Virus record (IMG/VR): IMGVR_UViG_3300033073_000160
Span: 1 to 64,000 of that record
Direction: 5' to 3' (one strand)
Source: a virus
Taxonomy: Duplodnaviria; Caudoviricetes
Length of the DNA stretch: 64,000 bases
Part shown: positions 6,381 to 58,635 of the stretch, in pieces
Layout: each line of letters starts with the position of its first letter
How positions within the stretch are numbered: the stretch's first letter is position 1
Position numbers and translations under genes: made by a program
The notes under the pieces: generated by a model
Seen by the model: the letters and a program-made list of their open reading frames with translations, nothing else
What the model was told of the DNA's origin: nothing
The model's database searches: none

Positions 6381-9300
6381 ATGACAACTAGAATTAAACT
6401 ACGCAGAGATACAGCCGCTAACTGGCTATCAGCAAATCCAATCTTGGCCGCAGGTGAACCAGGTCTAGAAACAGACACTGGCAAGATCAAATACGGTGAC
6501 GGTGTAACAGCCTATAGCTTACTACCACATGCCGGCGGTGATTTGCTATCCAACGATGCTGCTATTACAGTTCAAGCAGGCGATGCTACTAAGTGGTTAG
6601 CTGAGATGGCCCGCACTGAAGACTGGCAGGGCAACTCTTATCAGGGCATTACTGCTAATTGTGCGATCTATGACAATGCGGGCAATATTATCGTCGTAGG
6701 GGGCATCGACCAATCTGTTGTCACAAACTTGTTTGTGGCCAAATATACCCCAGCAGGCGTTTGTGTATGGAAAAAATCATTCGTTGAAATATCCAATAAT
6801 ATTCAAGTCTATTTAGAAAATGGTATTGCTATTGACAGCAACGACAACATTATCATCAGTTTTGCATACAACGCACCCGGTTTTAGCTTACTCAAGATTG
6901 ACGCCGATGGCAATTCCGTATGGGAAAGAAACTATGCCAGCAATGAGCCTTCTACTGTAATCTCGGGTATCGCGGTTGATAGCAATGACCACATTTTTAT
7001 GACCACATGGGTGGCAAACGAAAATGGTAGAATAGGTATTACTAAAATCAATAACACTACAGGTTCTATAATTTGGAGTAAATTCCTAGGTAACCTGGGA
7101 GTTAAATGGGCAGAAGCAGCCGGTTGTGCTGTTGATTATCTAGGCAACGTTATTATCTGTGGTTATCAAGAAACTGTTAATGAGCAGGCTTCAGCAGATA
7201 TTGTTGTGGCCAAGATTGACAATGATGGCAACTTAGTATGGAAGAAGACGGCTATAATGCCTGATTCAGCAAAAGATCTCAAATATGTCAATCCATCCAA
7301 CGTTCAAACAGACGCACTGGGCAACATCTACATCACTGGTAACTATACTGTTGAAAGTCCAGCACAAGATAGTTTTGGACAATTCAAGATAACCTCAGCA
7401 GTTTATGTGGCTAAACTAAACACCGCTGGCGTAGTTCAATGGGCTCGCCGCGCTGGGCCAGGCCCTTGCGATTGGACTGGTTTAAGTGTCACAGTAGGCG
7501 CAGATGGCGACCTATACCTGTCAGCCGCTACGATTACTCGCGCATGGGGCGAAGGTGCTCTAGGTGATAATAAAAACTACGAAAAGGGTGACTACGAGCA
7601 CAACCTAGTTATTGCTCGTTACACAAGCGCAACAGGTGATGTAGTATGGCAAAAGTATTTTAACAACGAACACAAACAGATCTTTGCAGGTGGAAATGGT
7701 GAATTTGGTGCTGCAGGCAATCGCAGTATTGACATTATAGATGACAAGTTTGTGATCTGCGGTGCTAGTCAGGCAGCAGAAGACACCGGCAATAATCGTC
7801 AATCAAATAGTTTCAGCACAGCATGGGTAGCGCAGTTGAGCACAGAAAGTGGTGTTGATTTTGACCTAGGCGGGTTTAGCTTTGTAGACAGCCGTGTGCC
7901 AGGTAAGAAGATCAACATGACTACTACTGCCAACACAGATCTAAGTTTAAGCAACGGCGACTTTACTGTTGCCGATGGTAGCGACGTCAACGAAATGATC
8001 GAAGCTCCGATCTCAACTCGCACAATCCGTAGTAAGTCACACACTTGGACCTTTGACAGTGAAGGCACATTAAAGGCTCCTGCAGAAGGCAACATTGTCC
8101 TAGATCAAACAGAACTAGGCTATGTGAATTTTATTGGATATGAATATAACGATGAAAGCGATATTTGGCTACAGTCAGTGGTAGCCGACGCAGATGGCTA
8201 TACTTATGCTGTCGGTGCTGACTCATGGAATACACGCAGAACTACAATCTACAAGTTTGATCCTACAGGTAAGACTGTATGGGCCGTTCAACTACACTCA
8301 GGTAGTGGTGCCCAGTTTGATCTCAATAAAGACAACGGTGTATATACCATCACTAACCTGTCCAACAGTGGTAATCACTACAAGGTAGGCGATACAGTTC
8401 GTATTTCGGGAGGGGACCTTAACGGTTCTAGCCCAGAGAACGATCTAGTTATTGAAGTTCTAACTGTGGATAATTTCTTTGGCAATATTCAAACTTATGA
8501 AATTCAAAGCGGTGTAGCAAGTGCAGGTTATAGCGACTTCTATAACCAACAAGACTACAACGATGACGGCGAAAGCAGACCAAGTTCAATCACCATTGAT
8601 CCAGCAACTGGTAATCTAGTGATCGTTGGTGAACAGTATGTGTGGGACGGCGGCAATACTAGCGTGATCACAGTGATGGTAGACAGTGAAAGCGGTGCCG
8701 TGCTTAATACCAGCGAACTACACTATGCTGGTCGAGATATGTATCCGTATGATGTTCAGGTCAACTCAGCAGGATCACCGGCTATTGTTGGACAAAGTTA
8801 TGGTGAAATAAAGAATATAGCTTCTATTGATCCAGAATCTTCAAGCAGTCTAGGATACATGATTGTAGGCAAAGAATCTATCACCACTGCTGAAGGTAAT
8901 ACCGCAGGCGTATATCCGGGCCACCTTGACAATGGCAGTGATTGGTATGTAACTGGCACAGGTATTACAGGTCGTGCTTATATTCAAGGCAAGAACAAAT
9001 ACTATAATATTCCAATGACTGTGACAGTAGGTCAGGGAACTCCTACATTTGATATTACAGGCAGTGGCGGTAGTTATACTAACCCTGTTGTAACTAATGG
9101 TGGAACAGGTGGATACCTAGTTGGACACAGATTAAAGATCTTAGGTTCGACCCTGTTTGGTGTTGATGGCACAAACGATGCCATACTAGAAGTGTCGAGT
9201 GTAGATGCCGGCGTTATTACTGGTGTAACTGTTGTTAGTGGAACATCAGCCGGTGATGCAGCTTATGTGAATGTGACAGCAACTAACTACCAAACAGGTA

Positions 9301-41937: not shown

Positions 41938-42195
41938 ATGTCTGGACGTAGTTACGGAGCCGAAGAAAAGGCAAAATTAGAAAGATTAATTAGCGAAGGT
42001 TCTACTGTATTGAGAGAAGTAGAAGACTTGCAAGAAGGGTTAAAAGAAACTGTTAAGGCAGTTGCAGAAGAGCTTCAAATTAAACCAAGCGTTATTAACA
42101 AAGCAATTAAGATTGCCCACAAAGGCGATTGGGCTGCTTACAACGAAGATTGGGAAGAGATTGAAGCTATCTTAGATATTACTAAACGCATATAA
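41938..42195 (+). CDS. Small dsDNA-binding protein (T4 DsbA/GapR-like)
   Basis: Helical LREVEDLQEGLKETVKAVAEELQIKPSVINKAIKIAHK pattern. Confidence 0.6.
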   Translation: MSGRSYGAEEKAKLERLISEGSTVLREVEDLQEGLKETVKAVAEELQIKPSVINKAIKIAHKGDWAAYNEDWEEIEAILDITKRI

Positions 42196-42491
42196 TGATT
42201 GACACTATCTTTGGGCCAACTATACAATGGATAAAAGATGATTGGGCATCTAACCGTTTACGTTTTATTATTGAGCTCCTTGCTTGGGCTATCTCAATTG
42301 GATGTAGCATCACAATGGCGGTCACGGTTCCCAATCCTCCACTCCTTGCTCTATATCCTATTTGGATCACTGGTTGTGCTATGTATGCTTGGGCTGCTTG
42401 GACTCGTAAATCTTTTGGCATGCTCGCTAATTACATTCTGCTCACCACAATTGATAGTGTTGGGCTGGTAAGGATGCTAAATAATTTATAA
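42195..42491 (+). CDS. Small membrane protein
   Basis: Three hydrophobic segments. Confidence 0.7.
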   Translation: MIDTIFGPTIQWIKDDWASNRLRFIIELLAWAISIGCSITMAVTVPNPPLLALYPIWITGCAMYAWAAWTRKSFGMLANYILLTTIDSVGLVRMLNNL

Positions 42492-42494
42492 GAA

Positions 42495-42551
42495 AGGTAA
42501 GCGGGCCATAAACCGCAATGTGGTATTTGCAAGCCATAAATTGCATAGGAG
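42495..42551 (+). promoter_or_regulatory. Tandem hairpins with identical GCCATAAA loops abutting the polB SD (candidate translational operator)
   Basis: GCGG-GCCATAAA-CCGC (42501-42516) and TGCAA-GCCATAAA-TTGCA (42528-42545), then AGGAG and a TTG start. Confidence 0.65.
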
Positions 42552-42557
42552 AAAAAT

Positions 42558-45224
42558 TTGAGTTACGTTGACGCATGGTTCAACCGCGATGACGATGTCA
42601 TCAAGATTGTTGAACGCAATAAAAAAGGTGAACGTGAATACAGGGACATCCCCGTAAAGCACACGTTTTACTACAAAGACCCAAAGGGCAAACACCAATC
42701 AATTTACGGAGATCCACTTAGCAGGATTGTCTGTAAAAACACAAAAGAACTACGCAAAGAACAAGCTATCAATTCAGGTAAGCAATTATTTGAAGCTGAT
42801 ATCAATCCGATCTTTGTTTGCTTGTCAGAAAACTATCTTAATCAAGATGCACCAAAACTCAATGTAGCGTTTTGGGATATTGAGGTGGACTTTGATCCAG
42901 AACGTGGCTACGCATCGCCGGATGATGCGTTCATGCCAATTACTGCGATTGCTGTTCACCTACAATGGTTAGACACCCTAGTTTGTTTGGCAGTTCCGCC
43001 AAAAACTATGACTATGGACCAAGCTAAAGAAGCTGTTGCAGAATTTCCTAATACATATTTGTTTGAAAAAGAATCGGACATGTTAGACATGTTCTTAGAT
43101 TTGATTCAAGATGCAGATATCTTAAGTGGTTGGAACAGCGAAGGCTTTGATATGCCGTATACTGTCAACCGCATTACAAAATCACTAAGCAAAGAAGATA
43201 CACGTAGACTATGCTTGTTTGACCAATTTCCTAAGAAACGTGAATACGAAAAGTTTGGTCGCGAGTCAGTTACATACGATCTAGTAGGTCGTGTCCATTT
43301 AGATAGTTTAGAGTTGTATCGCAAATACACATACGAAGAACGACATAGCTATCGACTAGACGCTATTGCAGAATACGAACTAAACGAACGTAAGACGCCA
43401 TACGAAGGATCGCTAGATCAACTATACAATCATGATTTTAAAAAGTTTATTGAATATAACAGACAAGATACTGCGCTGTTGGATAAACTAGATAAAAAGC
43501 TAAAGTTTATTGACCTTGCTAATACGCTGGCACACGAATGCACAGTATTGCTACAAACTACAATGGGCGCTGTTGCCGTTACTGAGCAAGCTATTATTAA
43601 CGAAGCGCATCGTAGAGGATTTCAAGTTCCCAACAGAACTAAAATGGACGATCGAGAAAGCAGCCAGGCGGCAGGTGCTTATGTTGCTTACCCTAAAGAA
43701 GGCATTCACGACTGGATTGGTTCGTTAGATATTAACAGTCTTTATCCGTCAGCTATTCGTGCCCTTAACATGGGGCCAGAAACTATTATTGGTCAGCTAC
43801 GGCCTTCAATGACTGAAGAATACATTCAAGGACAAATGGCTAAAGGCAAATCATTTGCGGCAGCATGGGAAGGTATATTTGGCTCATTAGAGTATACTGC
43901 TGTTATGAATCAAGAAATTGGAACAGAAATTACCATTGACTGGGAAGACGGTTCTAGTGATATGTTGAGTGCCGCAGAAGTATACAGGTTAATCTTTGAA
44001 AGTAATCAGCCGTGGGTAATCAGTGCTAATGGCACTATCTTTACATATGAAAAAGAAGGTATTATTCCCGGATTGCTAAAGCGTTGGTATGCAGAACGTA
44101 AAGAAATGCAGGCCAAACTCAAAGACGCTATTAAAGCAGGTAATAAGATTGAAGAAGAATACTGGGACAAGCGTCAATTGGTTAAGAAGATTAACCTAAA
44201 TAGTTTGTATGGTGCTATTCTTAACCCTGGATGCAGATTCTTTGATAATAGGATCGGACAATCAACTACGCTAACCGGTCGTCAGATTGCAAAGCATATG
44301 GCTGGAAAGGTCAATGAGATCATCACCGGAGAGTTTAATCACGTAGGTAAAGCTATTATTTACGGTGATACTGACTCTTGTTATTTTAGTGCATACAAAA
44401 CATTGCAGAAAGAAATTGATAGCGGGCAATTACCCTGGACTAAAGAAAGTGTTGTTCAACTCTATGACCAGATTGGAGAAGAAGTAAATCAAACTTTCCC
44501 ACAGTTTATGTTAGATGCTTTCCACTGTCCAAAGAGTCGCGGCGAAGTTATCAAAGCAGGACGTGAAATCGTTGGCTCAAAAGCATTGTTCATTACTAAG
44601 AAGCGTTATGCTGTTCTTTACTATGATAAAGAAGGCAAGCGTAGTGACGTAGATGGCAAGCCAGGTAAGATCAAAGCCATGGGTCTTGACCTAAAGCGTA
44701 GTGATACGCCTGAGTTTATCCAAAACTTCTTAAGTGATGTTCTTGAAATGGTGTTAACTGGTAAGACTGAAGAAGAAGTCCTTGATCATATTAGCGAGTT
44801 TAGACTAAAGTTTAAGAGTAGACCGGGTTGGGAGAAAGGTTCCCCGAAACGTGCTAATAAGATTACTGAATACGAAGCTAAAGAAAAGAAAGCAGGTAAG
44901 GCAAATATGCCCGGACATGTTCGTGCTAGCATTAATTGGAATACATTAAAGCGAATGATGAACGACAAATACTCAATGAGTGTTACTGATGGCGCTAAAG
45001 TTATTGTTTGCAAACTTAAACCTAATCCTATCGGGTTTACGTCAGTTGCATATCCGGTAGACGAATTGCGATTGCCGCAATGGTTTAAAGATCTTCCGTT
45101 TGACCATGCAGAAATGGAGCAAACTATTATCGACAACAAGTTAGATAACTTGATCGGTGTATTGAAGTGGGACGTTACTAGCACAGAGGAGAAGAACACT
45201 TTTAATAGCTTGTTCGAGTTCTAA
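42558..45224 (+). CDS. polB: Family B DNA polymerase (T4 gp43-like)
   Basis: ExoI WDIEVD, ExoII GWNSEGFD, ExoIII YNRQD, motif A DINSLYPS, motif B KINLNSLYG, motif C YGDTDS, KKRY. Confidence 0.97.
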   Translation: MSYVDAWFNRDDDVIKIVERNKKGEREYRDIPVKHTFYYKDPKGKHQSIYGDPLSRIVCKNTKELRKEQAINSGKQLFEADINPIFVCLSENYLNQDAPKLNVAFWDIEVDFDPERGYASPDDAFMPITAIAVHLQWLDTLVCLAVPPKTMTMDQAKEAVAEFPNTYLFEKESDMLDMFLDLIQDADILSGWNSEGFDMPYTVNRITKSLSKEDTRRLCLFDQFPKKREYEKFGRESVTYDLVGRVHLDSLELYRKYTYEERHSYRLDAIAEYELNERKTPYEGSLDQLYNHDFKKFIEYNRQDTALLDKLDKKLKFIDLANTLAHECTVLLQTTMGAVAVTEQAIINEAHRRGFQVPNRTKMDDRESSQAAGAYVAYPKEGIHDWIGSLDINSLYPSAIRALNMGPETIIGQLRPSMTEEYIQGQMAKGKSFAAAWEGIFGSLEYTAVMNQEIGTEITIDWEDGSSDMLSAAEVYRLIFESNQPWVISANGTIFTYEKEGIIPGLLKRWYAERKEMQAKLKDAIKAGNKIEEEYWDKRQLVKKINLNSLYGAILNPGCRFFDNRIGQSTTLTGRQIAKHMAGKVNEIITGEFNHVGKAIIYGDTDSCYFSAYKTLQKEIDSGQLPWTKESVVQLYDQIGEEVNQTFPQFMLDAFHCPKSRGEVIKAGREIVGSKALFITKKRYAVLYYDKEGKRSDVDGKPGKIKAMGLDLKRSDTPEFIQNFLSDVLEMVLTGKTEEEVLDHISEFRLKFKSRPGWEKGSPKRANKITEYEAKEKKAGKANMPGHVRASINWNTLKRMMNDKYSMSVTDGAKVIVCKLKPNPIGFTSVAYPVDELRLPQWFKDLPFDHAEMEQTIIDNKLDNLIGVLKWDVTSTEEKNTFNSLFEF

Positions 45225-45225
45225 T

Positions 45226-45999
45226 ATGAAAATTATAATCGCAGGGTATGGATTTGTTGGCAAGGCAATTGCCAACGCCCTAAAACCAACACACGATGTA
45301 GTTATTGTAGATCCACAATATACTACAAACGAAATTAAGTATCATCACGATGCAGATGGGTTAATTATATGCGTTAACACTCCTACAGGTGAAAACGGTA
45401 TCATCGATGCTAATAATGTAGCCAATGTGTTAGATAATGTGCCGGTGTTCATGCCGGTGCTGATCAAAAGCACAGTAACTCCGGCAATCATAGATGCATT
45501 TGATGAAATATATCCCGACCTAGCTATTACGTATAGTCCAGAATTCTTACGTGCTAGAACAGCCAATGAAGATTTTTTAAACCAAAAATATGTTGTGCTA
45601 GGCGGAGAAGATCCGGAATGCTTCTGGCAAGAGCTATTCCAATCAACACTACCTAATTGTAAACTAGTTTTAAATTGCACAGCCAAAGAATCCGCTATGG
45701 TAAAGTATACTATAAACTCATTCCTTGCTCTTAAGACAAGTTTCTTTAATCAAATAGCAGACATTTGTGATAACAACGGTTTAGACTATGACATTGTTAG
45801 ACACATTGTTAGCAACGATACACGTATCGGTGCTAGCCACACTATGGTCCCAGGACCAGATGGTGAAAGAGGATGGGGAGGTGCTTGTTTCCCAAAAGAC
45901 ACAGAAGCATTTACACAATGGGCTAGAACTGTTGAACACCCTGTCACTATTTTAGAAGAAGCGATAAATTATAATCGCCGAATTAGAAAAAATGCTTGA
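45226..45999 (+). CDS. UDP-glucose/GDP-mannose dehydrogenase family (short form lacking C-terminal domain)
   Basis: GYGFVG, ICVNTP, IKSTV, SPEFL, GWGGACFPKD. Confidence 0.9.
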   Translation: MKIIIAGYGFVGKAIANALKPTHDVVIVDPQYTTNEIKYHHDADGLIICVNTPTGENGIIDANNVANVLDNVPVFMPVLIKSTVTPAIIDAFDEIYPDLAITYSPEFLRARTANEDFLNQKYVVLGGEDPECFWQELFQSTLPNCKLVLNCTAKESAMVKYTINSFLALKTSFFNQIADICDNNGLDYDIVRHIVSNDTRIGASHTMVPGPDGERGWGGACFPKDTEAFTQWARTVEHPVTILEEAINYNRRIRKNA

Positions 46000-57450: not shown

Positions 57451-57794
57451 TGACTCCACAAATTCCAGCAGAAGGCATCCTTAAACGCAACGATTGGGGC
57501 GATTCTAAAATGTATCAAGTCGTCTGCGGATGCGGGCAACCCGATCACGATCATAATGTTTGGATAGAAGCAGATGATGGCAACATTAGTGTCACTATAT
57601 ATGTCACTGCTAAAAGCAAATGGTGGGAATTAAATCGGTTTAAACAACTGTGGAGTTTGCTCAGTAAGGGCTATATCAAATGTGAAACTGATGTTATAAT
57701 GTCAGAGCAGCAGGCCATTAACTATGCGGAAACATTAAAGTCTGCGGTTAACGATAGTAAAGAATTTAGGAAAAAAAGAAATGTCAAAAATTAA
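57450..57794 (+). CDS. Hypothetical protein with CxC..H motif
   Basis: VVCGCGQPDHDH. Confidence 0.65.
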   Translation: MTPQIPAEGILKRNDWGDSKMYQVVCGCGQPDHDHNVWIEADDGNISVTIYVTAKSKWWELNRFKQLWSLLSKGYIKCETDVIMSEQQAINYAETLKSAVNDSKEFRKKRNVKN

Positions 57795-58635
57795 AATCGC
57801 AGAATTATTTTATTCAATCCAAGGTGAGGGGCGCTATATGGGTGTCCCTTCGGTGTTTCTGCGCACATTTGGCTGTAACTTTAAGTGTGCCGGCTTTGGT
57901 ATGCCTAAAGGAGAGTTAAGTAATGAAATTGAACCTATTGCACAACGTATTGCAGAATTTAAAAGTTATGAAGAGCTTCCGCTTGTTAGCACAGGTTGTG
58001 ATAGTTACGCTAGTTGGGATCCTCGTTTTAAAGATCTCAGCCCGATGCTTACAAGCGATGGCATTGCAGAACGTATCTGCGAAATCCTTCCGTTCAACGA
58101 GTGGCAAGATGAGCACTTGGTAATCACAGGCGGTGAGCCATTACTTGGTTGGCAACGTGCTTATCCGGACTTGCTCAATCATCCTAAGATGAAGAACTTA
58201 AAAGAGATTACGTTTGAAACTAATGGCACTCAAAAGCTAACTCCAGAATTTAAAGAATTTTTAATTGAGTGGCAAATGCCGCATGTAGATTTTACGCCCG
58301 AAGTTACGTTTAGCGTCAGTGCTAAACTAAGTTGTAGCGGAGAAGCAAGACACGAAGCAATTCGTCCAGACATTGTATGTGAATATGAGGAGGTTGGCTA
58401 CACTTACCTTAAGTTTGTAGTAGCAACAGAAGAAGATGCAGAAGAAGCAATTGAAACAGCAGACATTTACAGAGCCGAAGGGTTTACAGGACCCGTTTAT
58501 CTTATGCCAGTTGGTGGGGTGGAGTCTGTTTATACTCTTAATAATCGCAGGGTCGCTGAACTAGCAATGAAAAATGGCTTACGCTATTCAGATCGTTTGC
58601 AAGTTCCATTATTTAAAAATGAGTGGGGAACATAA
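57781..58635 (+). CDS. queE: 7-carboxy-7-deazaguanine synthase (radical SAM)
   Basis: ELFYSIQGEG..GVPSVFLRTFGCNFKC...GCDS, VITGGEPLL, FETNGT, RLQV. Confidence 0.92.
   Translation: MSKIKIAELFYSIQGEGRYMGVPSVFLRTFGCNFKCAGFGMPKGELSNEIEPIAQRIAEFKSYEELPLVSTGCDSYASWDPRFKDLSPMLTSDGIAERICEILPFNEWQDEHLVITGGEPLLGWQRAYPDLLNHPKMKNLKEITFETNGTQKLTPEFKEFLIEWQMPHVDFTPEVTFSVSAKLSCSGEARHEAIRPDIVCEYEEVGYTYLKFVVATEEDAEEAIETADIYRAEGFTGPVYLMPVGGVESVYTLNNRRVAELAMKNGLRYSDRLQVPLFKNEWGT

Follow-up and report, generated by a model that had tools for sequence, protein, structure and literature searches.

The 64,000-nucleotide (nt) stretch analysed here, called the window throughout, comprises positions 1 to 64,000 of the IMG/VR virus record IMGVR_UViG_3300033073_000160 (Duplodnaviria; Caudoviricetes), and the element in question lies in the leader of its DNA polymerase gene, polB. 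The record holding the window measures 115.9 kb and was judged to be only about 31% complete, which points to a giant phage. The product of polB (PolB) is a family-B DNA polymerase: the 888-amino-acid (aa) open reading frame (ORF) matches Pfam DNA_pol_B (2e-36) and also contains an exonuclease domain. Its UUG start is considered correct because ATG is present at the same codon in most relatives. The ORF upstream of the leader terminates with a stop codon at 42489-91. Between 42496 and 42551 two hairpins with unlike stems carry an identical 8-nt loop, GCCAUAAA, GGU lies 5' of each, and the second hairpin stands beside the Shine-Dalgarno (SD) sequence AGGAG and the UUG start, from the first of which it is separated by a single nucleotide. 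All of these features, which had been noted in a preliminary description of the locus, can be read directly in the window. The two units are separated by a spacer of 5 nt, and the centroid structure calculated for the leader with ViennaRNA consists of exactly the two hairpins. The fold energy of the leader is unremarkable (z = +0.47), and GCCATAAA occurs three times in the window with 3.6 occurrences expected. With an ordinary fold energy and an 8-mer frequency at chance, the window by itself proves nothing. It is conservation with covariation among relatives, and not any statistic from within the window, that is decisive in lifting the element above chance at the level of sequence comparison.

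Relatives were collected in a search that was anchored on PolB and blind to RNA, yielding 80 viral contigs with polymerases 82-93% identical to that of the window. The element is present in 80 of the 80 leaders, and a covariance model gives a single match at each locus, immediately 5' of polB. Overall, the element was found in more than 260 distinct leaders. When RNAalifold was applied to the unbiased PolB-anchored set, both hairpins were predicted, with double changes at six of the nine pairs. Among 137 distinct leaders, 93.7% of the cells are paired as compared with 25-39% when the partners are slid, and changes on both sides occurred at eight of the ten hairpin pairs; GC, CG, AU and UA alternate at all core pairs of hairpin 1 and, in hairpin 2, at the three inner ones. 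A scan of IMG/VR with the frame of hairpin 2, in which the three inner pairs were left free, gave 119 matches, 108 of which form the full stem, and nearly all of which are accompanied by hairpin 1 and a PolB start. The same pattern was applied to 596 Gb of bacterial and archaeal genomes, where the stem was formed in 7 of the 120 matches examined, corresponding to the chance rate, and polB context was found in none. The claim that selection acts on RNA structure is thus borne out: the stems covary, with compensatory changes in both of them, while the loops stay fixed. Since G-U wobbles, including U-G, occur on the + strand, the selected molecule is the RNA of this strand. In principle, an intergenic site just past a stop codon could also accommodate an element acting at the DNA level, i.e., a palindrome bound by a protein, an origin or the terminator of the preceding gene. 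This is highly improbable, as the stem sequences change freely while pairing is kept, the helix described in the following paragraph covaries as well, the wobbles are confined to the + strand and include U-G in GGU:GCC, there is no U-run, and a terminator scan was negative.

It had also been proposed that the GGU segments could pair with GCC in the loops to form pseudoknots. This pairing was followed in 284 distinct leaders, from which 430 hairpins with a GCC loop were parsed. GGY is present upstream in 428 of them (GGU in 329, GGC in 99), at a distance of 3-10 nt and in nearly all cases 6-8 nt before the start of the loop; one of the two hairpins without GGY, in leader L345, is a parsing artefact and no genuine unit. 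AGU occurs only together with a GCU loop, and this combination is found in leaders L083, L117, L186 (unit 1) and L261 (unit 2). Leader L269 has GGU with an ACC loop and its near relative L263 has GGC with GCC; unit 2 of leader L075 likewise shows GGU with ACC. Exceptions to the pairing are leaders L018 (UGU) and L013 (loop UCC). When these variants were mapped onto a phylogeny that FastTree built from 252 distinct PolB proteins, AGU:GCU, with its four carriers, required four changes, or conservatively three because L083 and L117 are near one another on the tree, while GGU and GGC alternate about 30 times. The proposed pairing therefore covaries: a G-C pair gave way to A-U with AGU:GCU in three to four lineages, and C-G to U-A where GGU:ACC stands against GGC:GCC. 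Note that compensation takes place inside a single unit and not between units, which excludes a loop-swap or kissing arrangement. A fourth pseudoknot pair, between the base before GGU and loop position 4, was also considered; it is paired in just 47% of cells and is unsupported.

Because both the stems and the crossing GGY:GCC helix covary, each unit is, as judged from these comparisons, an H-type mini-pseudoknot. It is composed of a first helix (S1) of 3 base pairs (bp), a first loop (L1) of 1-3 nt, a second helix (S2) of 3-6 bp and an A-rich third loop (L3) of 5 nt. A junction between the helices is lacking (L2 = 0), so that the stem arm leads straight into GCC. GCC, the first three bases of the 8-nt loop, forms S1 with GGY, and the remaining A-rich bases, AYAAN or NNAAN, cross this 3-bp helix. 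Loop positions 6-7, AA, are invariant across the family and would be well placed for minor-groove contacts. In unit 1 the bases of L1 vary freely, as do positions 4-5 of the loop in unit 2.

The element always precedes polB or a small ORF in front of polB, and it does so once per genome. The tandem covariance model found one match in the 115-kb record; five large relatives, among them a complete 372-kb genome with terminal repeats, also have one match each. Relaxed scans for single units in the 115-kb record and in the complete 372-kb relative gave, beyond the polB leader, no more hits than in shuffled sequences. A regulon hypothesis was rejected, as the covariance-model and relaxed scans of these two genomes returned only the polB leader, and an antisense look-alike near 6725-6750 of the window was dismissed as a chance-level match within a 1533-aa ORF. 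The closest named relatives of PolB are those of Sinorhizobium phage Phosso (51% identity), Atu_ph07 and the Rak2-like jumbo phages; the motif was not found in Phosso, Atu_ph07, RaK2 or Vibrio jumbo phage 2.275.O. Rfam 15 contains no family matching the window leader at E up to 10, or matching six of its relatives at E up to 1, and no description of this motif was found in the papers searched. Taken together, comparative evidence identifies the leader as a conserved, polB-specific pseudoknot or pair of pseudoknots at the SD. The coordinates of its parts and of small ORFs found behind it in some relatives are compiled in Table 1.

Table 1 Parts of the polB leader in the window and small ORFs located between leader and polB in related phages.
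Feature	Position	Strand	Evidence or remark
GGU, 5' strand of pseudoknot helix S1, unit 1	42496..42498	+	pairs with GCC 42505-07
Linker AA, unit 1	between GGU 42496-98 and stem 42501-04	+	sequence reading
Stem 5' arm GCGG, unit 1	42501..42504	+	all 4 core pairs covary in 137 sequences; RNAalifold
Loop GCCAUAAA, unit 1	42505..42512	+	GCC is the 3' strand of S1, AUAAA the A-rich L3; family consensus GCCAYAAN
Stem 3' arm CCGC, unit 1	42513..42516	+	ViennaRNA fold, covariation, RNAalifold
GGU, 5' strand of S1, unit 2	42522..42524	+	pairs with GCC 42533-35; invariant across the window clade
Linker AUU, unit 2	between GGU 42522-24 and stem 42528-32	+	sequence reading
Stem 5' arm UGCAA, unit 2	42528..42532	+	three inner pairs covary, e.g. 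CG/UA, AU/CG/GC
Loop GCCAUAAA, unit 2	42533..42540	+	family consensus GCCNNAAN
Stem 3' arm UUGCA, unit 2	42541..42545	+	finishes 1 nt 5' of SD
Shine-Dalgarno AGGAG	42547..42551	+	6 nt from start codon; GGAG kept at same place in relatives
polB, family-B DNA polymerase, 888 aa, UUG start at 42558	42558..45224	+	Pfam
Small Cys-rich ORF between leader and polB	L107:4646-4816	-	overlaps polB start by ATGA
Small Cys-rich ORF between leader and polB	L108:2045-2227	-	ATGA overlap with polB; no Pfam or PHROG match
Small Cys-rich ORF between leader and polB	L131:409-597	-	ATGA overlap with polB start
Small Cys-rich ORF between leader and polB	L099:4839-5009	-	ATGA overlap with polB start
Small Cys-rich ORF between leader and polB	L075, upstream of 3001		leader ~110 nt from polB

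Insight into the origin of the tandem arrangement came from a sister clade, whose PolB proteins are about 64-66% identical to that of the motif-bearing query L117 and which contributed 102 distinct leaders. One unit is present in 85 of these. Its stem is often merely CCG/CGG or CCA/UGG, and the 3' arm continues straight into the SD (CGGAG, UGGAG). In 62 of 96 one-unit leaders the SD begins inside the 3' arm; in the sister clade this arm often includes the SD's first two Gs. Leaders L252, L254 and L258 are intermediates with two GCCAUAAN units, and in some relatives unit 1 shares the UG...CA frame of unit 2. Since the sister clade has one unit and two-unit intermediates exist, the unit appears to be the functional core that was duplicated in the window clade, as the preliminary description had proposed. 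Since the 3' arm of single units often contains the SD, the fold probably competes with ribosome binding. The sister-clade sequences thus support both the duplication and a translational role of the unit. A natural one-unit variant inside the two-unit clade is provided by leader L128 (95-168, - strand), where unit 1 is replaced by a GC-rich terminator-like hairpin with a U-run while unit 2 and the SD are kept.

Two further observations were made in the sister clade. In 84 of the 102 leaders (L259-L298, L300-L372), a second conserved hairpin precedes the single GCC unit, about 30-80 nt upstream of polB. It is laid out as GAGUCG, a covarying stem (GCUC/GAGC, GUUC/GAAC, GCCC/GGGC and others) with a loop of the type ACNNNAC, and AUG. 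Leader L261, located about 45-120 nt upstream of polB, combines a PolB that groups with the sister clade and a unit that resembles unit 2 of the window clade with AGU:GCU; an upstream ORF of 14 codons lies between this unit and polB. Recombination of leaders is possible in this case.

In a number of relatives polB is not the gene directly behind the element. Leaders L107, L108, L131, L099 and L075 are followed by a Cys-rich ORF of 57-63 aa (CxxC...C.C), the insertion of which explains why the element lies about 110 nt upstream of polB in L075. In L201, a 205-aa ORF is situated between the pseudoknot leader and polB, so that the leader is found directly before a different gene.

On the basis of its structure, conservation and position we infer that the leader is a translational operator. 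We assign a probability of roughly 0.55 to the reading that PolB represses its own translation via the leader pseudoknots, by analogy with gene 43 of phages T4, RB69 and RB49. Excess PolB that is not engaged on DNA would bind the pseudoknot or pseudoknots beside the SD, and the bound polymerase would block access of the 30S ribosomal subunit and so limit its own synthesis. Two units might provide higher affinity or cooperativity, and where a small ORF lies between leader and polB, control could be passed on through translational coupling. In the relatives, unit 2 ends 1-3 nt from the SD. PolB is favoured as the effector because the element is strictly polB-specific and single-copy, because it is placed at the SD and because T4, RB69 and RB49 provide a precedent. 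Of the duplicated autogenous operator postulated in the preliminary description, the RNA structure, the pseudoknot, the duplication and the position at the SD have all been substantiated, while binding and repression by PolB continue to be argued from the T4, RB69 and RB49 systems.

Several points weigh against autogenous control by PolB. The protein is only about 26% identical to T4-type gp43, which is a distant relationship. The T4 operator has no pseudoknot, and some T4-related polymerases are without autoregulation (PMC3014915). The SD is unpaired in the window clade, so that repression would need to be steric. Another ORF follows the leader in L107, L108, L131 and L201, and a good SD is absent in three of these. 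The pseudoknot architecture alone explains all conserved bases (GGY, GCC and AA), and no particular ligand is therefore indicated. Finally, in an analysis of independent contrasts, which had low power, no PolB column tracked the loop variants better than control traits did. This lack of visible PolB-RNA co-variation would be compatible with an operator for another trans-acting protein, be it a phage translational repressor, a replisome protein such as single-stranded DNA-binding protein (SSB) or, on the host side, a factor like ribosomal protein S1, and the structural evidence and the adjacency to the SD suit such a protein just as well. We nevertheless regard another protein as an unlikely effector. 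A general repressor is expected to have several targets, yet the units are confined to one locus in the complete 372-kb genome. The RegA family (PF01818) was not found in genomes G000 or G001, which is a weak argument as control genomes were silent too.

A fundamentally different explanation is a small-molecule riboswitch, in which each mini-pseudoknot is an aptamer for a metabolite from nucleotide pools or 7-deazapurine metabolism and the ligand stabilises a fold that masks the SD. The topology is that of the tiny pseudoknot riboswitches; these are H-type folds with an A-rich loop, their SD is contained in the 3' helix or flanks it, and some are arranged in tandem. The sister-clade unit, with a 3-bp stem and a 3-bp S1, would be only marginally stable and holds Gs of the SD, which would suit control by a ligand. 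In addition, a QueE-like gene is located 13 kb downstream (a 284-aa ORF at 57781-58635; phrog_2076, 1.6e-52). A deazaguanine context is thereby confirmed only in part, by the QueE-like gene alone; the 511-aa ORF at 46776-48311 matches nothing in Pfam or PHROGs. Even so, a riboswitch appears improbable. The Rfam comparison mentioned above included the preQ1 classes, L2 = 0 leaves no unpaired junction for a binding pocket, L1 of unit 1 and two loop positions of unit 2 vary freely as described above, and the SD is not sequestered in the window clade. Moreover, the only context is polB, and no other gene or cellular genome among those examined carries the element. It would be something of a long shot to regard the unit of about 25 nt as a new class of mini-pseudoknot riboswitch that gates polymerase synthesis on a dNTP-pool signal or a 7-deazapurine precursor for DNA modification, with tandem copies sharpening the response. 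If a metabolite nevertheless proved to be the effector, the element would represent a hitherto undescribed class of riboswitch that controls replication.

The fact that the fold itself accounts for all conserved bases could also be reconciled with a constitutive element that has no effector, i.e., a 5' stabiliser of the mRNA or a ribosome standby or enhancer module for polB. In leaders L008-L010, L018-L026 and L060, an extended -10-like sequence, TGnTATAAT, lies 5-8 nt before GGY of unit 1, and because this box sits directly upstream, transcripts of these relatives may begin at the knot. However, the window lacks a good promoter immediately upstream of the element; other messages should also carry it if it were a generic stabiliser, yet it is restricted to polB; and a stem that overlaps the SD, as in the sister clade, speaks more for inhibition than for enhancement. 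We thus consider a purely constitutive role doubtful and retain PolB as the favoured effector.

Further genes and signals surround polB in the window. A near-consensus sigma-70-type promoter (TTGACA, 18 nt, TACAAT; 11 of 12 matches) is found at 42199-42228, at the very start of the ORF 42195-42491. The annotation of this small gene before polB is uncertain because an alternative ORF, 42238-42471, starts just 3' of the promoter. Two genes 5' of polB, an 85-aa ORF (41938-42192) matches phrog_639, a phage transcriptional-regulator family, and gives a weak Pfam match to DsbA; a 'DNA binding protein' is encoded at the equivalent relative position in Phosso. Directly 3' of polB (45226-45999) lies a 257-aa ORF of the UDP-glucose/GDP-mannose dehydrogenase family with the N-terminal and central domains only.

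To our knowledge, T4 and a few of its close relatives are the only cases in which a replicative DNA polymerase controls its own synthesis through its mRNA, and the RNA used there is a plain hairpin. In the same place, a different and much better conserved RNA is found in a very large group of giant phages that are known from environmental metagenomes and have not been cultivated. This is a pseudoknot of 25 nt, single or duplicated, and as a compact motif validated by covariation it could be added to catalogues of RNA families and could serve as a marker for polB starts in metagenomes of jumbo phages. It would also lend itself to a clean study of RNA recognition by a B-family polymerase or by another effector. 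What is most likely new is a pseudoknotted and duplicated RNA as the leader operator of a phage polymerase; the kind of operator is itself already known.

Among small regulatory RNAs, the units are reminiscent of preQ1-I (RF00522) and of mini-pseudoknot riboswitches in general, which likewise are about 25-34 nt long, H-type and equipped with an A-rich third loop in a helix groove, have their SD within or beside the 3' helix and are occasionally found as tandem copies. Unlike preQ1-I, they show no covariance-model match, have no L2 junction with a ligand-reading C (L2 = 0), and the helix lengths are reversed (3-bp S1). Guanidine-II RNAs (mini-ykkC) likewise consist of two tandem hairpins whose unlike stems covary around one shared conserved loop, and the second hairpin adjoins the SD. 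The loops of the present element, however, are 8 nt long (GCCNNAAN) and not ACGR tetraloops, they pair in cis with GGY instead of engaging in loop-loop kissing, one unit suffices in the sister clade, and there is no match in Rfam. Operators of the RegA type consist of A-rich sites at the starts of many early genes, while the units described here occur at one locus in the complete genome. The leader of gene 32 in T4, T2 and RB69 also contains a small H-type pseudoknot in front of a phage replication gene, where it is used for autogenous control by the SSB gp32. That pseudoknot is located a long way upstream and serves as the nucleus for cooperative binding to an unstructured A/U-rich tract, whereas the present knots adjoin the SD of polB.

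The nearest parallel is offered by gene 43. T4 gp43 represses its own mRNA via a hairpin plus SD-proximal sequence (PMC3014915). The operator loops contain UAAC in T4 and RB69 and UAAA in RB49, and the 3' AC or AA bases of the loop are important for binding (PMC3014915). Direct reading of the T4 leader gave a 5-bp stem with the loop AAUAACUC, and in RB49 the 3' arm of the stem is the SD and the loop is GUAAAU. When AAUAACUC of T4 and GUAAAU of RB49 are set side by side with GCCAUAAA of the present element, AUAAA in both window loops faces UAAC or UAAA of gene 43. Only AA at positions 6-7 is invariant family-wide, and so short an A-rich match may be due to chance. Beyond the A-rich loop, the T4 and RB49 leaders have no alignable sequence similarity to those described here, no counterpart to the GGY:GCC pseudoknot is known there (PMC3014915), and the tandem duplication in the window clade sets the present element apart. 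What the two have in common is a hairpin with a stem of about 5 bp and an A-rich loop of 6-8 nt, which resides at one site per genome in the leader preceding a homologous gene for a family-B polymerase and lies next to or overlaps the SD, as it does in 80 of 80 relatives here.

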